Origin: Marsupella aquatica
Taxonomy: Eukaryota; Plantae; Marchantiophyta
Length of the DNA: 64,000 nt
Direction: 5' to 3'
Assembly: GCA_973895155.1 (NCBI GenBank)
Contig: OZ316894.1
Span: 13,370,828-13,434,827, forward strand
Shown: in pieces, positions 3,491 through 64,000 of the stretch
How positions within the stretch are numbered: position 1 is the first letter of the stretch
Layout: every line of letters starts with the position of its first letter
The notes under the pieces: generated by a model
Seen by the model: the letters and a program-made list of their open reading frames with translations, nothing else
What the model was told of the DNA's origin: nothing
Database searches by the model: none
Translations under genes and position numbers: made by a program

Positions 3491-15327
<11,837 letters not shown>

Positions 15328-36254: not shown

Positions 36255-36565
36255 TTATGCGCTCTGCATAGTTAAGGATACCCGACAATTTACCTTATCT
36301 ACTTGTGCTGGAAGGTCTAACACTAAAGTTCTAGGCGAGTCGAATGCTCTTAGTGAGGGCAATCCGCTTTGACCTGCTTCATCTTTGATGTACCTTGCTA
36401 GAGTATACAAGATATATTCATTTTGAGTGGTCCATAATGCTCCAACCTTCTTCTCAAGCGGATCTAGGAACAACAACTCTTTTCCATCATGTAAATGGAC
36501 CACTGCCAACACCCAATGCTCCCTGTTTGCCCGGTGAATAGGGACTGATATCTTCCTTGGAAATG
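36255..36565 (-). pseudogene. Ulp1/C48 SUMO-protease-like fragment (TE-associated), truncated by LINE-A
   Basis: VPIHRANREHWVLAVVHL...FLDPL...PAQVDKVNC gives the H, D, Q, C catalytic pattern. The ORF's first ~15 aa come from the LINE-A 3' UTR/A-tail. Confidence 0.8.
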
Positions 36566-38131: not shown

Positions 38132-39724
38132 TGTCGTCGGGGAAAATATTTGACAAATGAAGTGGAGTATGCTGGATCAGGTCGACTTGCTTTAAGTTCA
38201 GCTTGAGATGTATTAGTTATTTGGATGAGTAGTGAAAGAAACAAAACTGAGTTGAAGTTGAAAGGTAGTAAGACAAAAGAGGAATAAAAGAGCTATGGCT
38301 TTTAAAAAGCTTTTTGAGGGGAATTTTCTCCCGTTGACACGTGGTTGAATATGAGACTTTGAAGTTCATAAGGGCCATGAGGATGGAACGGTGATGCCTG
38401 CGATGGAGGTTTGGGTGAAAAGAAGAGAGAAATGGTCAAATGTGGGTGTGTGTCGTGGTGGTTATTGTTAGAAGACTTGGTCGATCTGTCAGGCGATGGG
38501 GGCAAAGTAGGTGGGATACTGAGGTTGGGGAAGGAATTCTGGAGGCGTATCGTGTATAGTTAGAGTGGAAGAAAGAAGGGAGACGACGAGCTTGGGCTGA
38601 GGAGTTATTTTGTTGTTATTATTATGGAGAAGATTGAAGTTTTTGAGTGAAGCGGAAACAATTGGCTGATGAAGGGCAGAAGAGACTGAAAACTTCTGGT
38701 GGCAAATAGAGTTGTTTGCGAGGCAGTTGCGGGAATGAATTTATTGAAGTTCAGGAGAGAAACAGCCAGATGTTTTCTTTTGAGGTGAGAAAAAATTGGA
38801 TCAAAGTCTGATAGAAAATGAGAATGGATCGTGAGAGGAATCGGGAAGTGTAGTGGAGAAGATTGCGTGTTGGAATACGGAGGACGATAGTACTATGAAG
38901 AATTGAAGAGGGTTACAAGAAAAGAGGAAAGGTAAATGAAATAGAGAACAAAAGGCAAAAATGAGGAATGGGAGGCTAAGGAGATCGATAAGGGAATTCT
39001 GAGGAATGCCCAAAAGGAGTTGAGAGCTATTAAAGAATGCTAGGGACGGACTGATGAGCTATCCACTGAATTAACGGAGCTGAATAAGTGTGCTGGCTGT
39101 ACTCGGGTCTGGAGGAGGGAAAGTTAGGATAGATTGATGGTTAAATAGGATGCTAAGTAGATTACTCCTTATTGAGGGAGTGCAACTATCGTGGTAAGAA
39201 GTGAAATCGAATTCAGTGTGGCTCGGAGAAGGAAGAAAATCTGGAACCTATTAGGGTTGGGAACGCAAGGAAAGAAGGGTGAAGAAGGAGGAAGATCCTT
39301 GTTTCCTCGGTAAACTTTACACTGGATTCTTGGTTTCCATAAGGCAAGTAAATTCAGAGTAGCAAGCGCATTAGGAGAAGAACTTGATTACACCCCGGAG
39401 TGTAATTGGTGATTAGAAGAAGCAAACACGACTGTAGCAGAAAAAGATTTCAAGTAAGCAATCGACCTGGGAGGACATCAGATCAGGCTGGTGGTGCAAA
39501 GACAAAGGGATTACTCATACAGGAAGAGAATTGGGTGGAGCAAGGATCGAGAAGGGCGGTGGAAGTGCCCTGGTGAGAGGTGGTGAAGAACGATTGAGCC
39601 TAGGGACTCGCTGACTTATGGAGATTACAAGATATAGTAAGCACATTACCCCTGTGGGTGGAAGGCGATCACAGTGATCGATAGTAGACTTACCAAAAAG
39701 TGTCGCACAAAGGACATACTTAAG

Positions 39725-39841
39725 CCCCATCTCATCCAATCGCCCCAAGGAATCCCCATCTCATCCAATCGCCCCAAGGAATCCCCAGTGCGACATTGGC
39801 GACCATACTGGGGATTCCTTGGGGCGATTGGATGAGATGGG
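39725..39841. repeat. 29-bp tandem duplication plus perfect 35-bp inverted repeat (39755-39789 / 39807-39841) around the Ty3 PBS
   Basis: cccatctcatccaatcgccccaaggaatccccagt, a 17-nt loop, then actggggattccttggggcgattggatgagatggg. Confidence 0.95.
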
Positions 39842-42800
39842 TGACTATGATGAAGTTGATCGGATCTCAAGCATCGTCATGTTGATGATGAGAACCATAA
39901 GGAAGGAAGAGCTTGAGGCGGAAAGGGCGAACAGGGAAGCGAATAGAACTACTCGGTGTCTCCAAGAGGTTCTGAAGGAGAATGGGCAGTTCAATGGGAG
40001 AAATGTGACAAGCTACCTTAAGTCTTACTTGACAAAAGGAGCTGTCTACAAGTTGGACGAAGGGACGGCGGTGAAAGAGTTCATGGTGCTGGTTGAGAAG
40101 GAGTTGAGTTCGACGGTGTGGACCATCGTTGAGTCAGCTAAGGGCTGGGATGACTTCGACCATAAGATGAAAGAGGAGTTCCAAGCAAAGGATGCTGATC
40201 GGGTCACGCAGGCTACCTTCTTGGATTGGGTGAATGATAGGAACAAGAAGCTGAAGGGGCCGCAAGAGCTCCTAAGGGAGTTCAAGAGAAAGGTGTCTCG
40301 GTTATCGAAGCGGGATGTGGGAATCATCAAGTTGCAGCGCTCGACGCTCTTCTTGAGGGCAGCCGATGAGGACCTTCGAGAGGAGCTTGAGAATGCGATG
40401 GAGTTGCTGGAACCTTCGAGAGTTACCTTGTCTAACGACTGGAACCAAATTGAGAAAGCGGTGTCAAAAGTGAGCAATTGACACCGGCGGCAAGAGCTAG
40501 ACAAGGAGGCTACCACTCTCGACCTAAGGCCGCCGGAACTGACATTGAGGAAAGGGAAGCGAGAACCAGCGAAGGATGAGATCAAACCATCGATGGATGA
40601 TCTCGCGGAAATGATGCAGAACTTGAAGATCTTGGTGGCACATGCAGTCGAGAATCCAAAACCAAGGGTTGCGAGTGCTCCCAAGCGGAAGCGAGAGTTG
40701 CAGAGTTGGCCATGCATATGATGCAACAACAAAGAGCATGACAAACGGGAGTTCCTGGACCTAAGGGAAGCTGCGGATAAAGGGCTGATCAAGTTCATTG
40801 GTGAAGTTGGTCAGAAAAAGATATTGTTTGCCGATACTGAGGAGCCGATTCCATTCAACTCCAACAAGGGAGGCATGAAGGCTTTGGCTGAGAAGCGAGC
40901 TGGGAAGCGAGTCAAAGAGGCTTCCTCTTTGCACCTGGAAGCGAATGTTTACAATGTGGAGTTGGATGGCCCCGTGATGGAAACAGACAAGTTTTACAAG
41001 CGCTTGGCGGATCTGGTGCAAGAGAGATCCGGATGGAGTGACCCGGTGCTGATCAATGCGATAACAATTGAGGTTGGGGCTAGTTGGGATGCCTCGGTCA
41101 AGTCAAAAAGGAAGAAAACCGACAAGGATGACACTTCGTCTCAATCAGGGGAACGAGAGAGGTGGGATACTAAGACAAGGAAAGAAGGGTTAGGTTCAAA
41201 GAAGAGGAAATGAGCGAGAAAGAGCCAGAGAAAGGGAAACCGATCAGGAAGGACCCGGGCTGGGTGCTTGGCAGGGATGTTGACCAGGCCATGTACCCGG
41301 AGGTTGTAGCTGAGAAGTTCTGGAGCCAACGGGCTCAAGGGTTTACCAATGCTGAGTTCTTTGGCAGGATGAGGCGGGAGATCCAGGAAGCGATCTTGGA
41401 GAGATCCAAGAGGAAACGGATTTACAAAGAGGGCCCTCACACCTTGATGGGGGAGGCTGGCAAGACGGAAATTGGGAGTTTCTGAACTTACACTGCTGGG
41501 GCATCCATGGGTCCAGGTAGCAAGCTTGCTGGCCCCGAAGAGTCAGACTTGGGGAAACCAAAGAGGGTCAAGTCCCTTGGAGGGGAGCTGATGGACGATG
41601 AGTTCTTTGATGCGGAAGAGGAGCTCATGGACTTGAACGATGAGTTCTTCGATGCGGAAGAGGAGCTCATGGGAACCGGAAGCGAAGCTGAGTCTGTGGC
41701 AAACAGGGACCCGACTGAAGGGAAAGAGCAAGAAGGCATTACCGCACAATCGAGGACCATTCATGTCATGCAATGAAAGGAAACGATTATGCTTACCGAG
41801 ATGGATATTGGGCTTGAGCAAGTCCGGAGAGCGAGTGCCAGTTAGAAGGAATGGAAGGCAAGGTGCGGGCACTCATTGATACTGGCTTGGAGATCAACTT
41901 GATGGATCCAAAGGTGTTTCAAAAGGGGAATTGGCCGGTGGATAATGAGTTGCTTTGGAGTGTGAACTCAGTGAGTTTGATGAAGGACTATCTTTGGGGC
42001 GGATGTCCGAATGTGATGGTGAAGTTCGGGAATGTCAAGCAGGCTTGTAACATTTTTGTTCATGAGCACTTGTCGTTTCCAGTGATACTAGGCATGTCGT
42101 TCATCACTGAATGGAGGATGGAGACGAAGGTTCTGGACGATACTACCTTCATGGTGAAGGTTCGGAGCAAAGATGGGAAAGAGGTGGTTCAATTTCCAGC
42201 TATTTTACTTGGAAACGAGAGGAATAGGAAAGGGTTGAGGACTCAGAGTGCTGACTCTGGTCCAGGTCCGGAAAACAACTTGGCACTTTGCTGAAAAGAG
42301 TGGATCGGTGGAGTGCTTGTTCCTTAGCTCCTTGTGAAGGGGAAAACACGATGGATAATGGAGAGGATGAGCCACTCAAATGTGCGGAGTCTAACTTGGG
42401 AAGGGACAAGCTGGAGAAGGAATTGGAAAGGCAGTACTCGTCTATGGTCGTGCTTGTATACTTGAGTACCAAATACAAGATGGTCGACAAGAAGGTGAGG
42501 CCGGCGGCGATACCTTTGCCGGACGATGCGATGGAGGTTATAGATCGAGCGAGATTGGAACCTAGGCTGAGGCCAACTGATCGGATAGGGCATAAGTTTA
42601 CTCAAGAGAGTTTGGCAAAGCTTAAGATTGGTTCGGATGGGTTACTTACGGAGGTGGAGCAAGTGGCATTTCAAAAGATGATAATGGAGCATGGCAAGGC
42701 ATTCTCGTTTTTGATTGAGGAGATTGGTTGTGCGGATCCGAGATGGTCATCTTTACTGTCCCTCATGTTCCGTGGGATCTGAAACCGATTTCGGTTCCAC

Positions 42801-45638
42801 GGGCTTTGGCTCCGAAGCTTGCGGAACTACTTAAGGAGAAGCTGAGTGCTAGGATTCTCGAGAGGTCTGATGCTCCCTACTCGAACAGATGGTTTACAAT
42901 GAGAAAGAAAAATGGAAGCTTGAGGTTCATTCAGGATATGCAACCTCCGAACAAGGTGACCATCAGGAATGTGGGAGTTGGGCCACTCGTGGATGAGTTT
43001 GCGGAGGAGTTCGCTGGGAGGGCGATCTACTCCATGGGTGATTTGTTTTTGGGTTACAACCAGTTCCAATTGGTGCAAGAGAGCCGAGACATTACGACTA
43101 TAAGGACCCCGTTGGGCCTCTTGAGGATGTGCACTCTTCCTCAAGGGGCGACAAACTCAGTAGCGCACATGCAAAATGCGATGAGTAAAATCTTGGAGCC
43201 GTTCATTCCGGAAAAAGCGAGACCGTTCATTGATGATGTCCCAATAAAGGGGTGCTTGGCTGAAGGGAAGGATGAGACCTTGAGGAGTGATGGGATCCGA
43301 CAGTTTGTGTGGGATCACATTGCTGATGTTAAGGCGGTTCTTGAGAAGCTGATTGATGTGGGAGTTACTCTTTCGGGGGAGAAGTCTGAATTCAGGATGA
43401 AAGAGGTGAAAGTTGTTGGGAAAATGTGCGGGTCTTATGGAAGGAAGTCGAACATGGACAAGGTGAGAGCTATTAGCAAGATGAAGGATTGCAAATCGGT
43501 GCCGGAAGTTTGGAGGTTTCTGGGTGCTTGTGACTTTTACAAGATCTGGATCCCTCACTTCTCGCACCTGGCGGACCCGCTCTATGAGCTGTTCAGGAAA
43601 AAGGTTAAGTGGAGATGGCTACCCGAGCATAGTGAAGCAATGGCTAAGCTTAAGAGCGCTCTCATGAGCCCGCAAGTTCTCCGAGTTGCGGACTATGAGA
43701 GCGGGCAACCACTGATCATGATTGTTGATAGAAGTCCATTTGCAGCTAGGTGGGCTGTTGGGCAAGATGGCGAGAATGGGGAAAGGTATGCGATCAGATT
43801 TGGGGAAAAAAATTTTACGGAAAGGCAAAGGAGATATGCCCAAGTTAAGAGGGAGCTTTGGGGTGCCAAAGTGGCACTCCATCAGGAGAGGAACTATTTG
43901 ATTGGGGCGCCGGTGGTGGTTGAGACTGATTGCCAATCGCTGTTGGGGATGATTGCGAATTGTGACACGCCTGACATAGCGATGCTCAGGTGGATCACTT
44001 TCATTCGGATGTTCAACCCTGAGCTAAGTCACATTGCGGGAAAGGACAATCCGGTTGCCGACATGCTATCAAGGGCGAGATTTGGAAATGAGGTAGCAAC
44101 AAGAGTTGGCAAGGTGACCGGAACCGAAAGTGTTGGAAGTCTAGAGTTCAAGGAAGAACTCTATTTGGGAGAGTTGCTGGATATCGGGCGTTACATTAGC
44201 ACTTTGGAGAAGCAACCAGAGTGGAGTTACCAAGAGTTTGTCAAGATCCGGAAGAGATCTTACAAGTTCCTATTGAGGGAGGGCTACTTGTGGCGAAGGC
44301 ATAAGGACCCAAGTCAGTTGTTGCAGAGGGTTGTGGATACTAAGGATGAGAAAGACCGAATTCTCAAAGAGTGCCATGATGCTGACATGGCTGGGCATTT
44401 GACTTACGAGAGGGTTCGGAAGCTGTACTGGTGGCCAGGTTTATACTTGGCCATCCGAGACTATGTCGAGACTTGCGAGATTTTCCAGTTTTACTCGAGG
44501 ATCCGACATAGGGATGGATTGGTTCCGACTTACCCCGTGGCTCTACACTTTCAATGGGCTGTTGATGTGATGTACATGCCAAGAGAGAGCAATGGGGCGA
44601 GATACTTGGTTTTGGCGAGAGAAGACTTGTCTTCTTATGTGGAAGGGAGAGCGTTGGTTTCAAACACTACTGCTGCGGTTTGCCAATTCATACTTGAGGA
44701 TATCATTGCAAGGCATGGATGCTTTACAAGGATCAGAGCTGATAGGGGGGAGCTCAGCTCCAAGGAAGCGCAAGAGTTTTTCGACCAATACCGCATCAAA
44801 CTGAAGCTGACTTCGAGTTACAATCCGGAAGGCAATGGGAAATCTGAAAGGGGGCATATTCAGATTGTGAGCGCTTTGGCTAAGGCTTGTGATGGGGACT
44901 TGGGCAGGTGGTCGAGTCTCTTTCCACTTGCTTTGTTAGCGGATCGGATGACTTGTAGCTCAGTGACCGGATATGTTCCGGTTGAGCTACTTACTGGGCA
45001 CTTGCCGATGATGCTGCTCGAGGAAGATGTTTGCAGCTGGCGACTGATTGGTTGGAAAGATGAAGTTTTGAGAGAGGAGTACGTTGCTGGCTCAAAGGAT
45101 CGAACACTTCAACTTGTTACCTGCGAAGATTGAGGTGGCTCGGAAGCAATTGAAGATGGCGAGGTTAAGGAACAAGGGCAGGTTCGACAAGACTCATCGG
45201 TTGAGGCCTGTCTTGGTTAAGGAAGGGGATTGGGTTCTGGTTTACGAAAGTAAGTTGGACGAGCAACACTTGAGCCAAAACAAGTTTGCTCGGAGGTGGC
45301 AAGGTCTGTATGTGGTGGTTGCTATTCATGCGAATGCGACCTACACTATTCGGGAGTTGGATGGAATAGTTCACCAAGTACCTTACACAGGGAAAAGGGT
45401 GAAGATCTTCAAGAGGAGGACCGAGAAGGGAATGGACTCAAGTTCTGACTTGAGTGAATTTGAAGACAAGGCACTGGTCCAGGCGCATCCGTTGGACTTG
45501 AGTTTTGAAAGTGGCTTGACGGGGTCTGATTCAGATGAGTTGGACTTCGAGTTTCTGGAAAGTGGAGTGCCTAAGGCCGAGTCTGAAGGCTTTGGGTTGA
45601 GTTTCTTGAGGAGGAAGTGGTCCAGGCGCATGGCTTGA
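39837..45638 (+). pseudogene. Ty3/gypsy gag-pol with stops and frameshifts
   Basis: Gag FNGRNVTSYL; protease ALIDTG; RT LPQGATNSVAH and FIDD; RNase H YAQVKRELWG and ETDC; integrase H..GH..C zinc finger, WAVDVM, RADRGEL and YNPEGNGKSERGH. Confidence 0.92.
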
Positions 45639-45712
45639 GTTCGGACTCAGACTTAAAGGAAATCTGATGGATTGGAGCAGACCGGAGGCTGCTCAGGTTT
45701 ACTGGGGGAGGA

Positions 45713-46526
45713 TGTCGTGCTGAAAGATTTTGGCTCAGGAATGACTTTTATAGGGGATGATGGGCGAGGCCTCCTAGTTGGGTTGCGTGCATGCTGACTC
45801 GGAGGGGCTGCTTGGTTGGATGGATTGAGGTTTGGTGATTGGGTGACTCGTCGTCACCAGGTTTGGTGTTTGGGTGAGTCACCAGGCTTGGAGTTTGGAT
45901 GAGCCTTGCTGATGACAGTTGGTTCAGGTTGGATGGTTGGGTTTCCGATGCTACTTAAGACTTGAGCCTTGGCTCATTGAGGTTGGCGGTTGTCTATTGA
46001 GATCTGTTGAGTTTCGTTCTGTGAGTTCCGCTCCGTTCTGCGGAACTCGACTGTTGTGCGGCGGTTTTGGAGTTCTGGGCGAGTGTTGGATCCAGGTAAG
46101 GAGTTTTTGATCCAGGCGGGGATTTCTCAAGTTTGGAGCCTCGTCGATCCAAGCAGGGATTTCTCAAGTTTGGAGCCTTGTTGGTCCAGGCCCGAGTTTT
46201 GTGAGAGCTGTTTTAGACTAGTGGAGTAGCTAGTCAAGTTTTGGTTTTGTGAGCTAAGGAGGAGAGTTTTTCCGTCAGATTTTTGAGTAGATAGTCACTC
46301 AAGGAGTTCAGCTCGACAAGTTAGAAGTAGCGGCCCACCGTAGGGCCAGCTACCAGACTCTTGCGGGCAAGCTTACTCAAGGGCACCCATTGTAACCTTT
46401 GTGAGAAAAGTAAAAAAATAATAAAGGAGTGAGAGTTCGCTCCAAAAAGTGCTTGTTGCCTGTCCCAATCGCAGCCAGAAACGCGCAGTTTGCCCAAGGA
46501 GCCCCTAACTTTAAGTCCTCGTGACA
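45713..46526 (+). repeat. 3' LTR of the Ty3/gypsy element (814 bp)
   Basis: TGTCGTG...CGTGACA directly after the PPT; homologous to the solo LTR at 18174-19005. Confidence 0.9.
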
Positions 46527-47052
46527 ACGACAGATGCTCGGGATTTGGAATCTCTAAACAGTGCGGGAGGTTCCTAGCCAGGATGCTCGGGCCGCATCCT
46601 GTTCTTGACCTACTTTGATTCATTCTACTGGATGAGGGAGATTTGATGACAAAATACAGAGTTGGTATGGTCTCAAACCTTCTGGAATGGAGAGAGATGG
46701 ATTTACAAGGTGGGACTCTCAGTGTTCGCGAGATAATCGCGAGATGGATGTGCTGGAAGATAGGATGGATGAGCCTACTTTGGAAAAATTTTAGGATGAC
46801 ATTGGTGACCGCTGCGAGCTTGAGCCTAGAAGTACAGGGGACAATTGCTACAAGGGATCGGTCCACAAGGAGGCTGAACTGGTTCAGCGAATGGTTGGCG
46901 CTGCAAAAGAGAAAGAGATTGCTGCTTGTATCCCAATTCTTAGAAGGATCTGAGATCTTTCTATTCAAGAATGGCCCTCAAAGCTGCATACCAAAATTCA
47001 GTGGTCGCTGGAGGAGGCAACAGAGACCGTAACGGAACTTTTCAATTGCACA

Positions 47053-47664
47053 ATGATGTGCTATTTCACAGACAGAGCCCCCATGCTTCCGACCTTCAAA
47101 TTATGGGTGAACAAGACATTTGTGAATGAAATGAATTGGCTGGTTTCCCAAGTTAAATTTGTGGGGAAAAGTTTCTACATGGTCACTTTCAGAGACCCTG
47201 CACATAGAGACTTTGCTTTGGTTGGCGCCCCGTGGTTCCTAGATAGGAAGTTTGTATTCACCTTCCCCTTGGATCCGTCTTTTGACATCAGGAGCAAATC
47301 CTATACAATGTTGCCAGTTTGGATTGAAATTCCTTTTAGAGCCCTAATCTTGGAGCCCTGCCGGAGGAAGCTGGCTGCTTCCTTGGGAGACATACTACAT
47401 TATATCCAGGGTGATGACCTCAGCTCTTACCCACATGATCAAGCTTGTGTGCTTTGGGACACACATAGAGAAGTGCCACAGAGTGTGGAAGTGGAGATTC
47501 AGGATGGTCTGTCAATTTGGCAACCGGTGACATTCAAAAATATCCCATTCCATTGTTTCAAATGCGGTAAAAAGGGGCATTTGGCTCGAGAGTGCAGGGC
47601 AGCAGAAGATTATGAGCCAGTGGGCCCCCTGTATCTACAACGGACAACATCCCCGTTGCTGTGA
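47053..47664 (+). pseudogene. LINE-B ORF1 core (DUF4283-like plus CCHC zinc knuckle)
   Basis: FYMVTF...APWFLD...LPVWIEIP...CFKCGKKGHLAREC. Confidence 0.88.
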
Positions 47665-48622
47665 ATACTGAAGTTCCTCTTGCTGAGGCTGAAACTCCTC
47701 GAGACTTGCCCCCGACTGTTATTCCTACGATGGCTATAACAGTGGCCCCGACAATGATAAATCAGGATGTGCCCCCGCCCATTATTTCTGTTGAGACTGT
47801 CGATGTCGTAAAGGAGGCCCCAATTATTCTACTCCCACTAGGTTACACACTTCCGGCTGTGGAAATAAGGGAACAACCAATACTGTTTGGGTAGGTGACA
47901 GTGGATGAGGTGAACCCACATCTGGTAACACTGACAGAGAATGGGGAACGACGGGGGAAGTGGATCACCCTGGGGAACACACGACATTAGTTCTTTCACT
48001 TCGGGACAAAATCCCTCGGGTCATATAGGATTTGCAAGCAATGGTCCTCCCACTGGTTACTACTACCACGGAGGGGAGCAATGTAATTGTGAATGAAATG
48101 GTGACTAAGGATCCAATTACTATCACAGAAGCAGGTGAACCGGCCCTTACCTTGGAGGATGGTGACAGAGAACCTATCTCGGCTTCTGAACCACCTTCAG
48201 ATATGGAGTTGTCTGAATTTGAGGGGTTTATCGCACGAACGGAACTTACGAGAGAGCGTACCCGGAAGTTGGCGAAAAGATCTCCCCCTGAAGACAAAAA
48301 GAAAGAAAAGGGGAAAAAAGGCAAGGAACCATCGTTCCTTACACTTTGTTTCTGTTGCAAAGGTGCAGGATGCTGAAGGATGGTCTACCCCGGAGAAGAA
48401 ACTGAAAGGTGATCCGTGAAGGAGCTCAGAGGGAGCTACGGCTCTACTGACGGTCAAAACGCAGGCACAAGGGAAATTATCACTGTTAATTAATGAAAAG
48501 AAACTTGTGGATCCAGAGATGAATTGTCCTGGGGCTGACCTGGGCACCCCGCTCTGAGGTGGGGTGCGAATAGGGGCTCCACCTTGAGAGGTAGTGAGTT
48601 GGAGTGGTAAAGTTGACTTCTA

Positions 48623-51600
48623 ATGAAGACTTTACAATATGCTTCATGGAATGTGTGTGGACTTTGCAGCCCTGACCGCAAGAATGTGGTGGTTAAGTGG
48701 GTCTCAACGTTGCGGCCGCCTATTGATTTTTTGGCTTTACAGGAAATAAAAGCTGAGGCTTTTAGGCTTGACATTGCCCTTAAAGCAATTCTTCCATCCT
48801 TTCAATACTTCTATTCGCCTCCGGATGAGGGCAGAGGAGGCACAGCTCTTTTGATTCACCCGTCTTTTGTAGTGCTGGCATCTGGAATTCTTGATAGGGG
48901 TCGGGAAATTTGGACGAAGATACAATCAGAGGAAGGAAACTTTGGACTTATCAGTATCTATGCTCCCAACTCGATTAGTGAACGTGTCTTGCTGTGGAAC
49001 GAACTGCTGCACACATTGCCCCAGGAGAAATGGATAATTGTTGGAGATTTTAATATGATGGAGCAACAGGATGACTCCTCCGGTTCATCTCCCAGAATTA
49101 GGGGTTGGGAACTTGATACTTGGCGATTACTGAAACTACGCTTTGACTTACAGGATGCCAAGGGCATTATGGGACACATCACTGGCTCTAACTTTACATG
49201 GAGAAGGGTCAGAAATGGAAGACTGATACAGTCCCAGCTAGACAAATTCTATCTAAGCGAAAAGGGTCAATGGTTAGAAGAGGTGATAGAGTTGAGGCAC
49301 GATGGTTCATCTGCTCTGTCTGATCACGATCCGATCATCCTCACATTTAGGATAACACCGAGACATTCAATGCCTACCGACGTTTGCAGAGCTACGTACT
49401 TCAAAGCAAACCCAGCTATTCTCAGGAAAAGAGAAAACATTGAAGCTCTCGTAGAAGCATGGGGCGCAAGAGAAGGAGGATCAGTGGACCCTCATCTGAG
49501 ATTTGCAGATGCTATGCAAAGGGTTAGACGGTGCTACATGGAGCTACAATATTCCCCTGTACCTTGGGAAGAAGAGATGCATTGACTAAGGGCTAAACTC
49601 TGTCATTTGAAAATGGCAATTATGGATGAATACACTGAAGATATGATTCTCGACTTTACTAACACTAAACAGGGTGTCAGAGAAATGGAGATGGAAGAAG
49701 CACTCCATCATCGGAGGCTCGCTAGAATAAACTGGCTTGGACAGGGCGATGAACCCTTGAAATTCTTTTTTGCAATGGTAAAAGCAAAATGTGATAGAGA
49801 AAATATGGAATATCTTATAGGGGAGGACGGAGAAGAGATTACGAAAGAGAATCTGGTGATAAAAGAAGTGCAGCGACACTGTGAAAAGCTCTACACTCCA
49901 ATGTTTGCTCCGAATGTGATGCGCAGAGAGATGTTGGAGGCTAGAAGGAAGCTATGTTAGCACACTCACTTTGCTCTTTCCGCTTCTGAGCTTCATAGAC
50001 TAGAGAGGCTTCCTACTATGCAAGAACTGCATGATACACTACTTTCCCTTCCTAGCAACAAGGCCCCTGGGATTGATGGCATCACTGTTGAGGTACTATG
50101 GAGCTGTTGGGACTTCATGAAGGATGGATTCTATGAGATGACATGTGAATTTTGGCGGTCAGGGCACATGGCTTTTGGGATCAAGGATGGAGTAATTCGC
50201 TTTATCCCAAAGAAGACGGATAAAAGAAGACTAGGGGATTGGAGAGGGCTCACGATGCTGACAACCACTTATAAGATCATGGCAAAGCTTCTTGCCTTGA
50301 GGCTGAAGATTCATCTACCAAAAATGATTAGTCCACAGCAAACAGGCTTCATACCCGGAAGGCACATATTAGAAAACATCTCCCTTACCTGGCTTCCTAG
50401 TGACTGGATTAACCTCACACAAACTCCTACTCTATTCCTGCAACTGGATTTCGAAAAAGCATTTGACAGGGTGGACCACTCCTACATCTGGGAAACCATG
50501 AATTTGCTAGGAATAGGATCCCACTTTATCTTTCTAGTTCGATCTCTATTGAGCAATGGATGTTCCAAAGCGCTGGTGAATGGTTTGTGGATAGAAGATA
50601 TCAGGATGAGACGTGGAGTGAGGCAAGGATGCCCCCTCTCTCCTCTGCTATTTGCAATCTCTACTCAACCTTTCATGGATTTCTGTAATGCAGAGATAGC
50701 AGCTGGAAGGCTTAAGGGTCTGAGAATCAATTCATCTCTGACTATCTATTTGCTTCAGATTATTTGCGGATGATTTAGGAATGTTTATTCCTGCCACTGC
50801 TATAGCTTTTGAACAAGCCAAAAATGCTATCCACTGCTACAAATGTGCTACTGGGACCAAATTGAATTTGAAAAAATCAATTATTATCCCCTTTGCTGTG
50901 GATGTGATCCCTGACTGGCTAAGAGACACTGGATGTAGAATCAGCGAAACTGGAGAGATACAAAAATATCTGGGTGCCCCCTTTGGGGTAGAAATTCTAG
51001 AGACACAACTACACAATTTCTGTCTCGATAAAATTAGTGCACGATTGTCATCCTGGTCGTCACAATTTCTATCCTTTACAACAAGGCTGCTGCTGATCAA
51101 ACATGTTTTACAGGCAATTCCTATCTACCATATGATGTTTATTCGATCTTCTCAGGTACTAGCTAAGAAGTTGACAAAACTTAATAGGACTTTCCTATGG
51201 GGAACTCAACCGCAAGGGGGAAGGAGGATCCCTCTGGTGGCGTGGGAGAAGCTGACAAGACCAAAGCTGGAAGGTGGACTTGGACTCAAGGATTTTCGGA
51301 GTCACTCTGACACTCTATTATGCAAATGGTTCACGGGTGCATTAGATGACCCTAGTTCTGAGTGGGCTCAAATGTATGCTGAGAATCTCAGGCTAACCAA
51401 ATGGCGCAACTACAAGACGGTGAGAAGAAGCTTGTACTCCTTGAGTGACAAATTACTATTGAGCACTCCTAGGCACTTTGGGAAACTTGTCTATACAGGG
51501 AAACTATGGAGTGCATGGGAGATGGCGAGAGAACATCTGATCTTCTGCCCAGGCAGGGGAGCGATACCTGGGCATTGGGGCTTCGAAGACTTGGTAGGGA

Positions 51601-52525
51601 GTATGCAGAGGTTCTATGAATTACCTGAAGAATGCCTAATGGGAGCATTAGAGCTTTTGGTAGTTTGGGGATGAGAAAAGTGGAGGATCTGTGGTCTACT
51701 AGGAATCGGGACTGGAAAGACATCTCTGGAAGATTGCATAGGATGAGAGGACTTTCCTCTATTGGCAGATCTGAACTCAATGTATTACTTTATACAGTGT
51801 GTGATATGCTGCTATACTGTGGGGGGCCGGGAATCTGGTGTTGTTGCTTGACTGTGGAAATGGAATGATACTGAGACTGAAATGAGGAGATTTACCACAA
51901 CAAATCTGAGGATGTATGAGATGCTATGACCTAAAGGCTCTGATTGGGAAGGCTAAATCGTATATGGAATGTGACACTGAATGAGCAGGAATGGAGCTCA
52001 GTCTGGAAGGGGTTGTGGTCTTCGAACCTCTCTACGCGAGCTAAGATCTTCATATGGCAAATTATTGCTCAGGGGCTTTTTTCTGGTGTTTGGGCCCTAC
52101 GGATCGGGAAATCAAATGGATGCTGCACAATGTGCACCTCTAGGATAGAAACCTTACCACATTTATTTTGCCACTGTAAGCATGCTATCAATGTCTGGAC
52201 TGAGATGAAGAGATGGATGAGAGGAGAGCTTATCGGAAGCTTTACAAGCATTGTTGAACTGCTGTGCTCCATTCAGAGACGCTCACCTCTTCTATCACTG
52301 TGGGCCTTCATAATTTATCAGGTTTTGTGGCACTTGTGGAATGCTAGGAATGTACAAGTGTTCGAATTAACACCTTGCCGCTCTTTTGATCCGATGCAAA
52401 TCATTTCTGAATGCATGGATCACATCATGGCGTTGTCGGTGGGAGCTACCTCCCTCTCTTGTAAGAAACAGGAACGGCTAAATATAGCTTTGAAGCTCCT
52501 AGAAACAGAACGCAGGGCACTTTAA
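48623..52525 (+). pseudogene. LINE-B ORF2 (AP endonuclease, reverse transcriptase, zf-RVT), disrupted
   Basis: SWNV.GL, LQE, IYAP, GDFN, SDHDPI; KAPGIDG, LDFEKAFDRV, GVRQGCPLSP, LFADD (frameshift near 50750), KYLG; CTMC...HLFCHC, LWNARN. Confidence 0.93.
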
Positions 52526-54432
52526 GGGCACAAGTAAGAAGAATAGTGACTGTCAGAAGCTGAAATGGACCTGTGGACTAGACAGTGCTTTGCTGAGAAG
52601 TTCTTGGATCCTGAGAAAACCTTTGGGGTCACTCCCCTGCATGAGTATGTAGTAGACATTTAGGTGAACTTTAGGTGGTGAGCTTTTCATCTGCTTAAAT
52701 AGGCCCTTGACTGGTCCACTCTGTTTTTCTTTCCCTTTGAGGATCTCTTTTGCCTGTGGGCCTGCTGATTCCCTCTCCGTGGGGTTCAAGCAGAATAAAT
52801 GAAAATTAAATTTAAAAAAGAAAATAAAAATGCTAGGGACGATGGAGGAGATAAAAGGATTCTGACACAGAATTGCGATTTTTTGGATAGTAGTCTAATT
52901 CAAGGAAGACTTGGGGATTTTTTTTTGGCTGATCAAGAATTGAATTGGAATGCGCTGCTGTTCATATGGTGAAAAGGAGGATCTAAGGGAAGAAACTGAT
53001 GCGCAACTAAAGAAAGATGATGAAAGAGTTTGAGAACTTAAGAGTAAAAGGCGATGAAGCTTGATGTTTCTTTTGGTTGAGAAGAGACTACAATGGTACT
53101 CAATTCCGAAATAGGCTACAATGCCCTGTGTGGAAGGAGAAACAAAGATTGATTTTAAAGAGAGTGCAATAGAAAAGATCTAATGCTACGAGGCGAAAAG
53201 GGGTCATGAGGTAATGAGAAGAAAATTAAGTGGAGAGCTCGGGTTTTTGCGAGTGGAAGCGAGTATATCATTTTCATTGAATTAATGTAAAAATGGTTGA
53301 TGTTGCAGATGTGGAGTATGGTGAGGAGGGTTAAGATGAGTTTGAAAGATACACTCCTTGACATCATGCAAGTTGAACGTATTGCTGAAGAACTATGAGA
53401 AGAGAAGAAAAGGCCAAAAAAAAACTGCTCTTAGCAGAGTCAAAAGCAGAGAGACTAAATTTGAATTGAATCAAGAAGAACAACTGTAACCCGGAAAAAC
53501 AATTCTAGGGTCAAAGCTCTTGTAGTATATCTTTGAAGTTGGGATGAACTTAAGTTCTAGAGGAATCAGGAAAGCATTCAGAGAAAAACTGAAAACAGGC
53601 TGACAGTGGCGATTCTGAAAAATTGTGGTGAACCCTGGAAGGAATGTTTTAACAGCCAAGATGCAAAGCGGAACGCTGGAAAACTGTGTAGCAGACTGAA
53701 CATGAAGGACAGAGTTAGAAAAACACGAGTAATTCCATGTGGGAATTTTGAAAGAATGTGTTTTTACTTATTTTTCTTGGACCAAGAGGAGGGAAAACCA
53801 TTTCATGAAGTTAATTAGGAGATTCCAGTTAGAAGTATGGATTACTTAGACCACTTTTGATTTAATGTTTTGGAGCTCTAGTAAGATAGATGAAGTTAAA
53901 AAATTGATTTCTTTTGATGACTAGAACCCGGTGATTGGGTCAATTTTTAAGTTAGGAACTGTTTGCTGCCATGGGATTTGAAGATTCTGGTCGTAGATTC
54001 TTCTTGTTGTGGGATTGGAAAATTGAGAAGAAGGAAAAAGGAGGGCCAAAAGAAGAAGCTCGGGAAGTGGAAAAGAAAAATGAAGACAAGAGGGAAACAA
54101 GATGACGAATGAAGCTTTGTAGCGAGTGTCAAGGCATGACTATCGACGACTGACCTGATGACCTGAAGTGGGTTTAGCATGGAAAACAATTAAGAAGTTT
54201 GGATTACTTTTAGTCGTGGAAATAATGAGTTGTAGATGAGTGAAAAAGATGTATGAGTAAAATTTATGAATGCATTGAGTTGTGAATGAATGATAGTGAT
54301 GATTCAATGTTTTTGATAAGAATGGATTAGTGTAATTTGACTTTGAAAATGAGAACTAAAAAGAATTAAATGGAGCTTAAATAACTTATAAAACTAAGAT
54401 AAAAAGGGTCAAGTCCCTAAAAACATAGAAAG

Positions 54433-57400
54433 TGTTGTAACTCATACCTGAGTTAAGTCTACCTTTGGGATAACTACCTATGTAACTACCCTAACTACTT
54501 AGGCTGTAGCCACATGTACATATTCTACCAGGAATACAGATGGAACAACTCTTTGTCTCATTTCTCCCACAACACGTTATCAGCGCTTTGTCTCACCAGC
54601 GGAGCAGAGAGAAGAGAACAGGCTATGGCGATTAAAATCTGAAAACGCTCGGGAAGAGAAGAAGAAGAGAGATCGAACAAGAGAGCACTTTTTAGAAAAT
54701 CAGACATAGAAATTCATAAGGCATTCGAGAGGAATCGACAAGGACAGCAAGAACAGAAACGCAAATCGATATCATCACACAAGAGGACCGATCCTGAGAA
54801 GCAGCATTCCCCTCCAGGGTGAAAAGGATAAGAAGAGCAAGACGACAACAATAGAGAGAAGACGATCAAAAAGTAGAAAGAAGAATTCGATTAGGACATC
54901 GCGACCTCATAGGGACAGGCCTCGCTCGATAGCCAATGATAGTCGCACGGGATGCAGCTATCTTGGAGCAAAATTTGGCTATCACGGAGAGAATAGCTGC
55001 ATATGAGGAGAGAGACGCTGCTCTTCTGCTACGTGACGTAGCTTACGCTGATCGAGATTCCGCCATGGAGGAACGCGATGCTGCTGTTACAACTCTTGAT
55101 ATTTCAGCGAACAACACCCTTGTCGAAAAGAGGCCATTGGTGAAAGATTCAAAGCTCTTCCATACGCTGAGTATGAAAAAGAATTGTACTATTGTAGGAG
55201 TTTTTCATCAGGCTCCCTTGCCTTCCACACGGTACAGTGCTGTTGTTCAAGAGCAAAGTGACCTTGGCAAGATCGGCAATGCCAAAAGAGTCAGTTTGTG
55301 GGTTTCCTAGGAAGAGGAAGCTAATAGTGAAATCTACGCTCGATCGCACAGTGCATTCGAAAAGATCATGTCGTTCTCCCCAGGAGCATCGTTTGGAGCT
55401 TGGAGATAGCGACGAGGCCGATTACCTGAAGGGCCCAAACGATGATGTTCACGTTGATAATGTGCGATACCCCATTCCCCACTGCTCCTGTATAGGTGTG
55501 AGACAGCAGTGTTACAGATGGGGTAACGGGGGCTGGCAATTCTTGTGTTGCACTACTATGATCTCCATGAACTTTTTGGAACAACTCGGCTCCGAAGGGA
55601 TAAATGTAAATTATCCTGTCGATTTGAAGGAGCACTGGGCAAAGCATGGAACTAACCGTTACGTTACAATTCGATAACAAGATGAAGCATGCTCCGTCAT
55701 TCAAGATCGACGACATGTAGGGAAGTTTCCGTCAATCATATTTGTGAAGCTCTCTTGACAGGCGCAAAATGTTTTGGTTTCGGGGGCCAAGTGAGGCACA
55801 CTGGGCGTTTGCCAAGATGATACGTGGTTATACTGACGCGTCTGCACGAGTTCCACATTTGAAGTATATAATACTGTTGTATTTTGTAAGTTCATGGAGA
55901 TCTGCGTTTTGGAACGAGTCATCAGACCTCCTATTTCCAGTCCGTGAAGGCGACCTCATACGGAAGATTGATTCATAAGGAACACCCATACGCCTAATTC
56001 CCAATTGAAAAGATAAGAAGAGAGAAGATGCTACAGAAATCGAACGCAGATCGTGAGCAGGGCAGGCAGCATCGCGAACATATAAAGACAGTCCATGATC
56101 GAACGCGAAGGGAGAAACTGAAAACTTCGAAGGAAAGAATGCGAGACAGAGGAGAAACAATAAGCACCGAAGGCAAGGAGGATAAATCCAAGAACATTGA
56201 AGGAAGCACAAACCCAAAAAACCAAAGAGAGAATGTGAGGAACGCCAGGAGAGAGAAGGACGTCCAGTGCAGACGGAGATCGTGGTACAAGCTAAAGACG
56301 AGACGCTGGGCAAAGGAGGCAAACAAAGAGAAGCCATCAAACCAAAGGAAAGTCCTCCACCTTTTCTTCTAAGAAGACCATTTTACACTAAGTAATGGAG
56401 AACTAAAGAACAAAGAGACTTTCTCTTCAAAAGGAAAGAAAAACCAAACAACAAAGCATGAAGTAAGGACATAAAGAAAGAAGCTAAACTACAGAACCTA
56501 CATGGCGACAAATGATGATTACTTCCACCAATTAATTTCATAAATTCAAGGGGAGATATTTTTCCCAGGGGTGCCTACTACACATAAAATCCCTGTGCCT
56601 ACTGCACATGGAAGCAAATGGGTGCCTATTGCACACCCAGCCAGAAAGGAAAAATATTTGACAAATTGAGGGGGAGACCTCAAGCAAGACTTGCCTCCCA
56701 GAAATTTAACCCATGGGATGTGCCTACTGCACAAGTGCTTTTCACAACAATCAATATTTAAAAAATAAAAATGGAACTACATTCCATGAGTTAGAAGCAT
56801 ATGGCCAAATTATGAAAAATGCATTAAATCACCAATATTGGATGACATGTCATGATGACTAAAATTGGAAATATCAAAGACCCCACATCATATCATAATA
56901 AGGTATCATATGATCATATGAAGTATGGTATCACATTACAAGGTACTATCAAGTGAGGTATGACTTGGTAAGGCACCATGACAGATGGTACGCTATACCT
57001 TGATAGGAAATCCCTATGACATATGAGACCTAGGATTGGACACTCCAAACGATTCCAAGGCCAATGGATTTCAATCAACCATATCATCTTCATTATGAGC
57101 TAATACCTTGTTTTTTTTTCTTTGCATGTCATCTATGACCATTCAGGAATCTTCATTACCTGATCAGGAAGAGACGCAAGACACACAACACAATCAACTT
57201 TGCTAACACCAACCAAGGAGGATCTTCAACATGCCTATAGTGTTGACAAACACCTTAAGAGACTTTGTAGAAATTACACATACACTATATGCTTAAACCC
57301 AATTATGTTACACCCATGGGGATGGTAATACTCTTTCCTCCCACAAAGAAAGTAGGGGAGGTTTTAATGAGATTACATCCCCCACTTACACTTTACCATG

Positions 57401-57721
57401 CAACATGAATTATAAGACATCTATTAGGAGAAGCTTTACATTCATTTATAGTAGACTTGAGATGGCTACACCATTTATAAAATAGGCTAGACATAAACAA
57501 AACCTATTGTATACCACTGAGTATGCCCACAGTAGACTCTTGATTGTAACATTTAAACCCCAATGTTACAAAGGGGGAGTGTTGTAACTCATACCTGAGT
57601 TAAGTCTACCTTTGGGATAACTACCTATGTAACTACCCTAACTACTTAGGCTGTAGCCACATGTACATATTCTACCAGGAATACAGATGGAACAACTCTT
57701 TGTCTCATTTCTCCCACAACA
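54433..57721 (+). mobile_element. Young non-autonomous Copia-type (Bianca-like PBS) LTR element carrying a BPC gene copy
   Basis: Identical 142-bp LTRs at 54433-54574 and 57580-57721 (TGTTG...CAACA); 5-bp TSD GAAAG; PBS-like CGTTATCAGC directly after the 5' LTR; PPT AAAGGGGGAG at 57570-57579. No intact gag/pol. Confidence 0.92.
54936..55677 (+). pseudogene. BPC: BBR/BPC GAGA-binding transcription factor copy, frameshifted and internally deleted
   Basis: Alanine-zipper repeat RDAAILEQNLAITERIAAYEERDAALLLRDVAYADRDSAMEERDAA and C-terminal PIPHCSCIGVRQQCYRWGNGGWQFLCCTTMISM...PVDLKEHWAKHGTNRYVTIR*. The two halves lie in different frames, and the YPLP...RKMS segment of the domain is missing. Confidence 0.9.
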
Positions 57722-57761
57722 GAAAGTTTAATTTCACACCGCTTTAAATTGGTCCCTGACA

Positions 57762-58224
57762 CCGGCAGAGCGCTATCATTTTCTTGGCTAATCTCTCAAA
57801 CGCTCTTAGAAACATGGAGTGATAAATAGGGATAGCCTATAAAATGTGCCTAACCAGAAGTGTCCGTCCTGAAAAGGACAACAGTTTATTTGGCCAAGAG
57901 GATAAGCGCATGTCAATTTTACCTTGAACAAATTTGTGCAATTGAATGCATCTTCAAGTCCACCCCCAAGGGGGCACCCAGATACTTTTGTAACTCTCCT
58001 TTGTGGCTAATCACACAACCTATATTTGACAGCCATCTCAGTATAGTATTCATTTCCAGTGGGATAACAATGGATTTTCGCACGTTGAGTCTTGCTCTAG
58101 TTGCTGTTTCATAGCAATGCAATACAATTGTGGCCATTTCAAAGCTCCTTAGTGTGGCAGGGATAAACATTCCCATGTCATCCGCAAATAGCCTATAACA
58201 AATTGTTAGCTCATCCAAGATTTT
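57762..58224 (-). mobile_element. LINE-A upstream part (RT region)
   Basis: RLFADDMGMFIPAT...LQKYLGAP...LSFSGRTLL...IPIYHSMF...ALCR; continues into 38131 after the insertion is removed. Confidence 0.88.
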
Positions 58225-59757: not shown

Positions 59758-62600
59758 CTATTGCTTCTTAAGCAATCTAGAGTTCCATAGGGCATTCATC
59801 CCTTTCACATCAGATAATTTAGACTGGTTCTCCCCTGAATTGGCAAATGGCAATGCCACATCTACAAACACTTCAATCACACGCACTCGCAAGAAAGGGC
59901 TTTCAAAATCTGCACAATGAAACTTATCTTCTCCTGGCAGCCCTGTCACCTCACCTTCTGCCACTATCATGGAATTGTCCACAACGCTCTTCATCTTCAC
60001 CAAATCTCCTCTTGCAAACTGTGAACAACACATTTTGTTAAAAATGCAATAAACAGAAATTGAAAGATAGAAGAACACTCAAATCAAACACACATTTACC
60101 TTTGCAACGGGGTTAGGAGACTGCATTGGTTTCTTCTGTGCAGGTGATGCATTTGCTGAGGATCCTTTCTTCCTTTTCTTCTTTCCCTTTCTAGTTGATG
60201 GAGTGTCATCCTGTTCACTTGGAATGGGAGTTTCTTTTGGCAACTCAGATGATTCTGGGGTTACATCTGGTGTCAACTGAGTCGACTTATCCTCTGGCAA
60301 CTGAAAGACATCTGAAATGGCTTCTTTGGGCAACTTAGATGGCAAAAGGTTCACTTCCAATTCAGTTTGCTTTAGAGTACTGTTAGCTGTGTCAGTTGGT
60401 CTTCCCTGTGACACAGGAGGCTCCCCTAAAGATGCTGTCATAAAACACACACAAAAGAAATGCATAAACAAACATGTATACACCAGCAACATATAATCAC
60501 ACTAAAAACATGCAAGAACATTATAAACATGCAATGACATATACACATCACAATAATTACATTGAATGGACAGTGTATACATGATAGAGAATTTTACCTT
60601 CATTATCGCCTGAAAAAGTAAGAGATCGCTTTCTACTACCTTGTTTGGTAGTTGTAGTCAACTTACTGTGACTAGGCACAACTGTTGGAACTTGTGCATT
60701 ACTGGGGTGATGTGCCATCCACGTAGTCATCATGTTTGTCAACTCCCTCACAGTGCCTTTCAACTCAGCGACATCCAATTTCACAGCCCCAATGGCAGTG
60801 ATCTCTTCTTTTGAATGTGGGGTCTGTAAATGAACCACAAACCAACACAACAGTCTCACTGTCAAACTTACAAACGACACAACACTGGCTCTGTCAAATG
60901 GAGAATGATGTACAAATCAAATTGGTATGACAATACTCACAGCTGATCCATGTCTGTTTCCTTGCCCCAGTAAGCTAGCACTTTTACCCTCCCCACTTGC
61001 CAATGATGGGCTCACCTTTGCTCCCACAAAACTACCAGTCTGACCTTCTGCACTTGCCAATGATGGGCTCATTGTCACCTTTGGCAATGAACCCTGACTA
61101 CCATGGTTTTCTTTCAGGTCAGATATACCTGGGCTTGATCCTCTCTTCTGCTTCTGTTCAAACACACAATGAATGAGAAATCACAGAGTTTGTTTTCATC
61201 AAGATTCACAAACAAGACAGAATTGATAGTGAAAATGATAGACAATTTACCATTCTCTTTGCTGCTGCAGCATGCCCTCCCCTTCCAAAGTGAGAGGTAT
61301 CTTGCACTCGTGCTCTTTTATCAGTCATCTGTTTACTCAAAGATATCAATGCTGGACTGGTAAAATGAGATACCAAAGCTGCCCATTTCTTTGGATCAAC
61401 ACCAGATGGCCCAAGTTTGGTTGGATCCTCATTGCAAACTTTCTTCCAATAAACATGCATTTTATGGCGCTCTCTCTTCAATATGCCACGACAATGACTC
61501 TGGAATTTGGTGTTAATAAATTCCCCACCCACATACTCCCACTCAGCTGCCATGTTATTCCACACTGTGGTTGTATGAACTTGTGGATGATCAGTCCATT
61601 TTGGCTTTGATACATCAAAGACTCTGAGTACGTTGCCACAAAGTTCCTCCAGCCAGTATTGTTTGTTGCCATCAGAATCATCAATATCATTGTCATAAAT
61701 CTGCATTTCATAGACAATGTCAGATCATAACTCTGGAATTTATGCAGAGTCCAGGTTTTATACACACAACAACAGAGAGGATCAGATTTGTCTAAATCTA
61801 CAAACAAGTACAATACTCACTTTAATGTGTTTGGGCACCTCTCCGCAATCCCTTCGTTGTTTGGCAGTATTATCAAACTGCTTCTTAGCATGCCTTCGTT
61901 CCCTGCGCATCTCAGAGGCCCCTCCTGCAATGCACACACATGCATTCAATCAAAAAATATGTACATGATTGAAAAGTTGAGCAAATGTACTTGCATATGC
62001 AACACGAGCAGATTGTGTATTACCTGAAGATCCTCTGGAATGTAGTACATCAGATTGACCTGATCTGCCTTCAGATGCTGATGGAACCACTAAACAAACA
62101 CACAACACCAAAGCACTTCAATTAATTTCATTTCCAAGTAGAATATCAACTTCCAAACACACCTGAAAAGTAGAACAGTACAATCCACTCACTTTCATAT
62201 AAGAGTCCAGTGTCTGGGTCTTTCCAACATCTCACTAGCCCACCTCCACCAGGCCCAGTCTTCTTAGGACCACAATTTTGTTTCTGTACCTACATCATGG
62301 ACAACGTAAGCATATCAACATATAATTTGAAAAAGGGACAAGGATCCCTTCCTATTAGGATGATGAAGTTCAAGCATTACCTGTTGTGCACTCTCTGGTT
62401 CTGACCCTCCAATGTCAGAATCCTCAGTGTCATACTCAGAAGGAGAACCATAGCCATCATCACCAAACTCTGCCATGTTCACCTTGGTAACTTCTGATAG
62501 TCTAGAGCTCCTCCTCTTTGGCAATGTTTCAGTTGAAGTACCTTTCACCAAAGCAGGCTTTCCTCTCTCTCGTTGTACATGTGTGGTTGGGCCTCTAAGG
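59758..62600 (-). CDS. CACTA second (TnpA-like) gene, multi-exon
   Basis: GPSGVDPKKWAALVSHFTSP...SKQMTDKRARV...HFGRGG (Ptta/En/Spm-like) and VKMKS...VAEGEV...FHCAD...RVRVIEV..DVALPF...LW (Tnp1-like); splice sites visible. Confidence 0.7.
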
Positions 62601-63023
62601 AACAAAGCAATCATCAACATACACCAATGCAGATCAAACATACATGCAAAATGAATCTACAACACCATAACACTAGTACTTATGTACAGGATCCATACTA
62701 GTATGAGACCAATCTGGAATATGAAAACAGAACATGAACCTGACAACTCCATCTACTGAATCAAATTTGCAATAGACATATCAACACACACATCAGCTTG
62801 CAGTCTGGCCCCAGTCCTAGATCACGCATAATTCTGACATTATGCTCTATGTTCCGATTTCGGGCCTCCTCATAAGGATTCACAGAATGTGACAACCCTT
62901 GCAATCTTCCTTTCACAGGCTGCATTCACCAACTGCACAAATGGATAAACCATTAGTCTGATTTCATAAATAGTCCATACATGTAGTCCATCTATGGACT
63001 TCACACACCTAGCTAAAACCTAT

Positions 63024-63888
63024 TCACTGCTTAGGCCTGCCCTTTCTTGCAGATCCCTCTGCATCTCTGCCTCGTTTGGGACCAGTACTTGGTCCTGGAT
63101 TTTCTCTGGACCTACAGGCCTTAGCCAATTCGATGTGTAATTTGACATTGTTTTCCATTGTAGCATGGAAATCAACGTCTGTGTAATCACCTAACACCCT
63201 TGTGGACCTGGATTCTTTGTGGAGGATTGTTCTCCATGCTATCCCCTTCTCATTGGGGTGGAAGAAAACCTGCTCCACTTGCTTTGGGAAAACGTAATCC
63301 ATTTTCTTGGACACACCCAGTTCTCTATGGAAATTCACCTGCCAAAGACCAGACTTGGTATACCTCATACTGGCAGAGGATTTAGGAGTCCATGATGGAT
63401 CTGCCCATTTCCCTTTGAAAAGAATCACCTCTTTCCTCAAGCTGCCATAATTCAGTACCAAGATATCTGTCAAGGCCCCTACATACTGTACAGATTCTTC
63501 TATGGTTGCACCAGACCTGTCCACTCGCTTCTCAGTGAATGTAGAAGCCATCCCAGAATCAAAAGTGCTGAAAGCACCAGAATCACAATCACTCAAACAC
63601 CCCAAGGATGGAATAGTCCTCCAATGGTGCCCATAGGCTCTACATGCCCTATACAGTCGTGCCTTCAAACTAGGTGGTGTGGAGTATGCAGATAGTAATG
63701 ACCGCTCAGACTCTTTCTCAAAATTATGGGTATTGACTAATGTTTGAAACCATTCCCTGAAAGGTGGCAATTCTTGGCAGTCTACGGGAAATTCCACTGG
63801 TTTTCTTCGATTGGCAGGCTTCCTCATCCACTCCTTCCGGAAATCCACTCTTCGTTTGGTAACAGTCTCATTGGTAGCATCATATATC
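63024..63888 (-). CDS. CACTA transposase C-terminal exon (DUF4216-like)
   Basis: YRACRAYGHHWRT, TFDSGMA, YVGALTDILVLNYG, VILFKGKW, YVFPKQVEQVFF, WRTIL; acceptor at 63889-63890. Confidence 0.85.
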
Positions 63889-64000
63889 CTGCATGGCAAC
63901 AACAACACTGAAGACATTAGTGCACGATCCACCATGAATATACAAACACAATGGGGAAACATAATTATGATCCATATGCCTAAGGATAGGAGAGTTTCTA

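Follow-up and report, generated by a model that had tools for sequence, protein, structure and literature searches.

The interval 54433-57721 of the window (the whole 64,000-nucleotide stretch of Marsupella aquatica DNA analysed here) is a 3,289-bp non-autonomous LTR retrotransposon, which confirms the original observation. The reading we regard as probable is that this element, likely a Bianca-type copia, carries a broken piece of BPCV, and that the piece, likely copied ~3-7 times, is a passenger without function. Capture of genes by LTR elements of plants is well documented and the architecture here is ordinary; the interest of the element lies in its donor, a sex-chromosome gametolog.

Structure and affinities of the element

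The features of the element and its immediate surroundings are given below, with the basis of each in parentheses.

54428-54432, plus strand: left target-site duplication, GAAAG (related uninterrupted sites in contigs)
54433-54574, plus strand: 5' LTR, 142 bp, TG...CA (comparison of the LTR pair)
54575-54584, plus strand: primer-binding site, complement of the 5' half of tRNA-Ile(AAU) (10-nt match in this copy)
54585-54935, plus strand: leader, purine- and GAGA-rich, modular among family members (loose ends at 54621, 54639, 54787 and 54794)
54936-55310, plus strand: first frame of the cargo, a 124-aa ORF with alanine zipper and linker (Pfam GAGA_bind, E 2e-6)
55284-55287, plus strand: A-run holding the +1 frameshift (the intact relative in run X10 has one base less, at 55287)
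55285-55677, plus strand: second frame of the cargo, with basic patch, linker and BPC domain, stop at 55675-55677 (frame 55198-55677, GAGA_bind E 8e-34)
55560-55574, plus strand: deletion junction (perfect 15-nt inverted match to 55888-55902)
55678-55757, plus strand: 80 nt after the stop, from the donor 3' UTR or part of the backbone (join in sister forms at 55758)
55758-57569, plus strand: backbone, non-coding, no gag/pol match (present in more family members than the cargo)
57570-57579, plus strand: polypurine tract (read from the sequence)
57580-57721, plus strand: 3' LTR, identical to the 5' LTR (comparison of the LTR pair)
57722-57726, plus strand: right target-site duplication, GAAAG (comparison of flanks)
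57762-58209, minus strand: decayed LINE reverse-transcriptase fragment adjoining the insertion (tblastx to the LINE at 50741-51188)

Paired TG...CA LTRs, a target-site duplication within the 4-6-bp range, a primer-binding site and a polypurine tract are all present, as in LTR retrotransposons generally. The identical LTRs and perfect target-site duplication of the preliminary description were borne out (142/142 bp between the LTRs; GAAAG on both sides), and the chance of a matching 5-mer at both element ends is ~0.001. Related empty target sites were found in contigs that join 54403-54426 to 57721-57724. These come from three (X1, X3 and X4) of four runs, X1-X4, which cover organisms A and B in two studies, hold 0.44-0.48 of the sampled words and possibly include the window's own source; runs X5-X9 (shares 0.05-0.06) were left out. 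No retroelement Pfam domain was found in any of the six frames of 55678-57579, read through stops, and the backbone gave a single weak zf-C5HC2 match below the cut-off; the same scan recovered reverse transcriptase, RNase H and integrase from a gypsy-type element elsewhere in the window. With no gag/pol match in 55678-57579, the element is therefore non-autonomous. Three candidate cis signals were noted: a perfect 10-bp hairpin directly before the polypurine tract (57544-57571), a 16-nt palindrome in the backbone (56906-56921) and four copies of a ~14-nt motif, also in the backbone (56572-56735).

The primer complement ends at nucleotide 41 of tRNA-Ile (the tRNA-Ile sequences compared being from viral contigs and not the host's) and places a C opposite anticodon position 34, which would correspond to pairing with inosine. 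The match is 10 nt in this copy and 15 nt in a sister form (a loose end at 54584 in X1). Among the 36 viral-collection loci that match the primer motif, three are tRNA-Ile(AAT), with the motif lying over the anticodon, and 33 are without a tRNA. Edited half-tRNA-Ile priming together with a 5-bp target-site duplication are given as Bianca traits (PMC6317226), the priming mode being reported there for 92% of 260 Bianca elements. Both traits are found here, and on this sequence evidence the element likely belongs to the Bianca group of Ty1/copia, a lineage defined by RT/RH/INT phylogeny. It departs from the Bianca elements described in that source, whose range is 4,170-8,556 bp: it is shorter, has no polyprotein and matches the primer over only 10 nt. 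A search of JGI metagenomes with the LTR-end/PBS pattern gave 0 matches and thus no sister element, a literature text search with the PBS motif returned only unrelated papers, and the 64-kb window contains no tRNA genes.

Resemblances to other gene-carrying elements are evident. Maize Bs1 and other plant LTR elements likewise hold host coding fragments (PMC3726574, PMC13317346), and the published counts of genes captured by LTR elements are 672 in rice and 1,343 in sorghum, many of them pseudogenized (PMC3726574). Bs1 differs in being described as an expressed chimeric gene from several donors (PMC13317346), whereas the element here has one donor, a sex-chromosome gametolog, whose captured piece is decaying. 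Gene-carrying TRIMs, as characterized in PMC4717578, share short LTRs, a 5-bp target-site duplication, lack of retrotransposon proteins, an exon-only cargo and copying after capture; their limit, however, is 1,500 bp (gene-carrying examples 1,172-1,449 bp), and membership was rejected on size (3,289 bp against <1,500 bp).

The leader had been described as GA-rich. This holds for GAGA tetramers, of which 54575-54935 (66% purine) contains 11, but not for long GA repeats: neither a (GA)4 run nor an RGARAGRRA motif was found in that interval. Mononucleotide shuffles give an expectation of 3.6 (p=0.002) and dinucleotide shuffles one of 11.2. Only 2/177 window tiles reach 11 GAGA, and a stretch outside the leader (55990-56350) is as rich, with 13. 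GAGA is reported to be a sufficient BPC site in vitro (PMC6477699). The leader contains one 5-codon upstream ORF at 54625.

Identity and condition of the cargo

Homology of the cargo to BPC proteins begins exactly at the ATG at 54936, at an internal methionine corresponding to residue 17 of P0002, and the cargo reaches the natural stop at 55677. Best named matches are proteins of Calypogeia fissa, Marchantia ('MpBPC2') and Riccia. The nearest intact protein, P0002 (288 aa), is 83% identical to the cargo over 245 columns, and is itself 73% identical to MpBPC2 and 50% to MpBPCU; BPCV was formerly named BPC2 (PMC8699743). The phylogeny proposed in the preliminary description was built from rows hand-chosen from 191 proteins. 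In the 28-row tree the cargo falls into a clade with MpBPC2, two Riccia proteins and leafy-liverwort proteins (support 100/99), with MpBPCU separate; within this BPCV clade it adjoins P0002 and the Calypogeia proteins. The grouping recurs at 100/100 in a 16-row tree, and an AU test rejects a BPCU origin, that is, a grouping of cargo with BPCU (p=0.000143). On this placement the cargo is of the BPCV lineage (MpVg00350, formerly BPC2, in Marchantia), and not the sex determinant. Judged by the cargo only, the host would likely be a leafy liverwort. The implied link to the sex determinant BPCU was thus not upheld: in Marchantia both gametologs are reported as needed for sex-organ induction, with feminizing activity only in BPCU (PMC8699743). 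The BPCU/BPCV pair is said there to mark the oldest stratum of liverwort sex chromosomes, V-linkage of BPCV being reported for Marchantia and Blasia; in Riccia BPCU is reported lost and BPCV kept in both sexes (PMC11923412).

A search with the BPCV alignment returned 78 loci, none near the cargo over its full length (best full-length identity 47%), and the best 40 blastn matches listed all lie within the BPC coding part (54947-55689). Calypogeia fissa (P0001, P0101, P0006 and P0105) has three BPCV-clade copies, whose records differ in length, and one BPCU; two of the BPCV-clade copies are on long branches and one is fused to an unrelated N-terminal part. Since these copies cluster together (99/98) and not with the cargo, BPCV has duplicated independently there. 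Two pieces are present in run X10 (organism C) over 55160-55661, one of BPCV type and intact, the other short, C-terminal and of BPCU type; a monoicous species, or a sample of mixed sex, would be expected to show both.

Compared with intact BPCV, the cargo is without the first 16 residues, frameshifted, short of part of the BPC domain and present in multiple copies in a transposon. The frameshift claimed initially is real: it is a +1 shift in the A-run 55284-55287, and the intact relative in X10, which has neither frameshift nor deletion, differs from the cargo at 70 positions in 409 nt (83% identity). The reported loss from the DNA-binding domain also stands, but its size was underestimated: 25 aa (75 nt) and not ~20 aa are missing after 55569, including the central RxxGRKMS motif, described as invariant (PMC6477699). 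Taking a continuous frame and an intact BPC domain (cysteines, RxxGRKMS, WAR/KHGTN) as the mark of a functional BBR/BPC transcription factor, the cargo is not one, with its frame shifted and RxxGRKMS lost. A search for a solved BPC structure found no match.

The junction of the deletion bears a perfect 15-nt inverted copy of 55888-55902 (10/300 shuffles reach 15 nt anywhere in the interior), and sister forms repeat, near 55900, the 11-mer that directly follows the junction. Together these suggest a templated deletion inside the element. A piece from X10 spans 55677-55827 at 97% identity, and could be a related element or mixed material. Loss of parental introns had been put forward as a check. 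The captured stretch, however, likely lies within one exon: in moss genomic loci ~900 nt suffice to encode residues 8-288, and the alignment of the X10 piece has a single 1-nt gap over 409 nt. Because the donor stretch appears to be single-exon, the comparison is likely uninformative.

Copies, timing and the probable route of capture

The preliminary description held that capture predates this insertion and that the cargo is being propagated. Depth supports this. In X1-X4, cargo contigs stand at 2.9-7.1 times the depth of flank contigs (which show 0 differences to the window), an indication that the cargo has been copied ~3-7 times; the figure is an estimate, since depth of contigs does not give the number of copies. 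Depth over the backbone and LTRs exceeds that over the cargo, with ~6-34 times flank depth for the backbone beyond 55758. The frameshift is crossed by cargo contigs with 0 gaps in three runs (X1, X3 and X4), and the deletion is bridged in two (X1 and X4): as both lesions are common to multi-depth contigs, capture preceded spread. The same order follows from divergence. Cargo contigs differ from the window by 0.75-1.2%, against a drift since capture of ~4-6%, estimated from changes at invariant residues and measured against BPCV of relatives and not the host's own; on these figures the spread followed capture and both lesions. In each of X1, X3 and X4 a single depth value extends across 55218-55311, with no frameshift-free form among the contigs listed.

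The insertion had also been called recent. It is young, the LTRs differing at 0/142 positions, but a very recent date is not demonstrable from this number: the 95% upper bound allows up to 2.1% LTR divergence, and the right junction occurs in all four runs (with 29-30 LTR letters on one side, below the 31-letter bridge rule). At 55049 a cargo contig in X1, X3 and X4 runs into unrelated sequence at the identical point (95 to 255 letters shown): this is a copy truncated or interrupted within the zipper. Bin depths in X1 imply that one more contig (depth ~14.5) covers 55621-55661, the same interval as the BPCU-like piece of X10. The X1 pattern would fit a BPCU-bearing plant without BPCV; contigs show presence and not absence, and 14 loose ends fall outside those listed, so it is not counted as evidence.

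The following sequence of events would account for the element. Most of the BPCV coding exon would have entered an ancestral element in sense orientation, probably when reverse transcriptase switched template to a co-packaged BPCV mRNA – a capture route set out in review (PMC13317346) – with a DNA-level event as the alternative. The sense orientation, lack of poly-A and one apparent exon of the cargo all fit such a switch. Capture may have taken place in male reproductive organs, where it could be heritable; Marchantia BPCV is reported to be expressed mainly there. The cargo would then have drifted by ~4-6% without selection, gaining the frameshift and the deletion, the latter apparently templated from the element's own downstream sequence. 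Finally, the damaged form would have been copied in trans, presumably by an autonomous relative primed by half tRNA-Ile, leaving copies ~1% apart, one of which would have landed here in old repeat DNA.

A passenger without function as protein may still act as RNA, and neutral protein decay says nothing on an effect at that level. It is conceivable, although we think it unlikely, that the cargo copies are silenced and that their 24-nt siRNAs also hit the host BPCV, dampening or methylating it. With several copies of the cargo, diverged by only ~4-6% from the inferred donor, many exact 21-24-mers should remain, and in maize the donor genes of TE-captured fragments are reported to have more siRNAs mapped and more methylation (10.1101/777037). 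The same source, however, has important syntenic donors keeping their expression, and BPCU is probably too divergent to be an siRNA target, with 64-66% protein identity even over the zipper. Slightly more doubtful is a wider version, in which BPCV has been lifted off the V chromosome and its broken copies scattered to places inherited by both sexes, with small RNAs or a zipper peptide modulating BPC control of reproductive induction. Were this true, female (BPCU-bearing) plants would carry V-derived BPC sequence, and the element would exemplify a route by which transposons carry genes away from a sex chromosome that ranks among the oldest known, with regulatory consequences.

That the cargo is instead a secondary insertion, with a BPCV fragment (processed or DNA-borne) entering an element already in place and not acquired during reverse transcription, appears improbable. 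The preliminary description had named cargo-free copies and a poly-A of the cargo's own as its signs. The first was found: in sister forms that lack the upstream part the sequence joins at 55758, and depth is greater over the backbone and LTRs than over the cargo, so cargo-free relatives exist; LINEs, moreover, are abundant in the window. The second was not, there being no A-run >4 between 55678 and 56010, and the cargo lies in sense. Whatever the entry route, lesions shared at multi-copy depth mean later spread inside the element.

The cargo illustrates how a retroelement can multiply the sequence of a gametolog. TE-borne copies could be mistaken for BPCV itself when plants are sexed by PCR, k-mers or capture, and when monoicy is inferred. 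Within the largely open-access full-text literature and the liverwort papers covered, no earlier report of TE-borne BPCV was found.

Decay of the zipper frame and neighbouring sequence

Between cargo and P0002, changes number 21/125 in the conserved domains and 20/120 in the linker (p=1.0), against 7/125 and 23/120 between the intact proteins P0001 and P0002 (p=0.0015), where they are concentrated in the linker. Invariant residues are altered at 6/37 sites in the zipper and 7/55 in the DNA-binding domain of the cargo (p=0.76), while each of seven intact orthologues, left out in turn, alters 0-3. Decay is thus uniform, the zipper keeping pace with the dead domain, and shows no sign that a dominant-negative peptide has been selected for. 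Selection on the zipper was accordingly rejected, a dimerization domain under selection being what a dominant-negative microprotein would display. The zipper does keep 7/7 heptad alanines (p ~0.35), and the first ORF has stayed open for 116 homologous codons (p 0.4-0.6): both are compatible with drift and also with some use.

Interference by the zipper-only ORF had been suggested, and is not supported by these data. It would have the 124-aa ORF translated from the element and trapping host BPCU/BPCV in non-binding dimers, which we consider very improbable. The alanine zipper is reported to mediate dimers of Arabidopsis BPC4/BPC6, and C-terminally truncated BPC6 to self-associate (PMC3037368); because the zipper is needed for these dimers interference is conceivable, and the heptad alanines are kept and an ATG opens the ORF, but nothing here points to selection for it. 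Apart from decay at the rate of the dead domain, the zipper has lost charged residues (E4A, R12Q) where salt bridges are predicted to matter, and truncated BPC6 with full-length BPC6 is described as giving no significant reporter signal in yeast two-hybrid, the figure legend stating fusion dependence (PMC3037368). The ORF also stops before the basic RKRK patch, is preceded by one to three upstream ATGs (depending on start site), and has no close zipper-only relative among 466 candidates, with three weak matches.

Several further features were noted in the window. A nearly whole but broken LINE (ORF1-like, endonuclease and reverse transcriptase) occupies 46954-52522, with related fragments near 37969-38128 and at 57762-58209. 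The decayed gypsy-type element lies at 39678-46521 (reverse transcriptase, RNase H and integrase at 42719-45130); a copy of 45713-46521, 78-85% identical and possibly an LTR, occurs at 18174-19000. Long, apparently transposon-derived ORFs are found at 22561-25581 (minus strand), 27074-28879 (plus), and 36258-36629 and 61209-63998 (minus). Among these, 23587-24363 has no Pfam match, 36258-36629 is weakly similar to Ulp1 protease and 63027-63998 to DUF4216. Gene pieces on the minus strand at ~3808-15402 (PAS/LOV start at 14443-15402, kinase piece at 3808-4290) are, judging by domain order, presumably phototropin-like. Inside this PAS/LOV-kinase region, at 5816-6114, is a perfect tandem duplication of 149 bp: either a recent duplication or an assembly slip.
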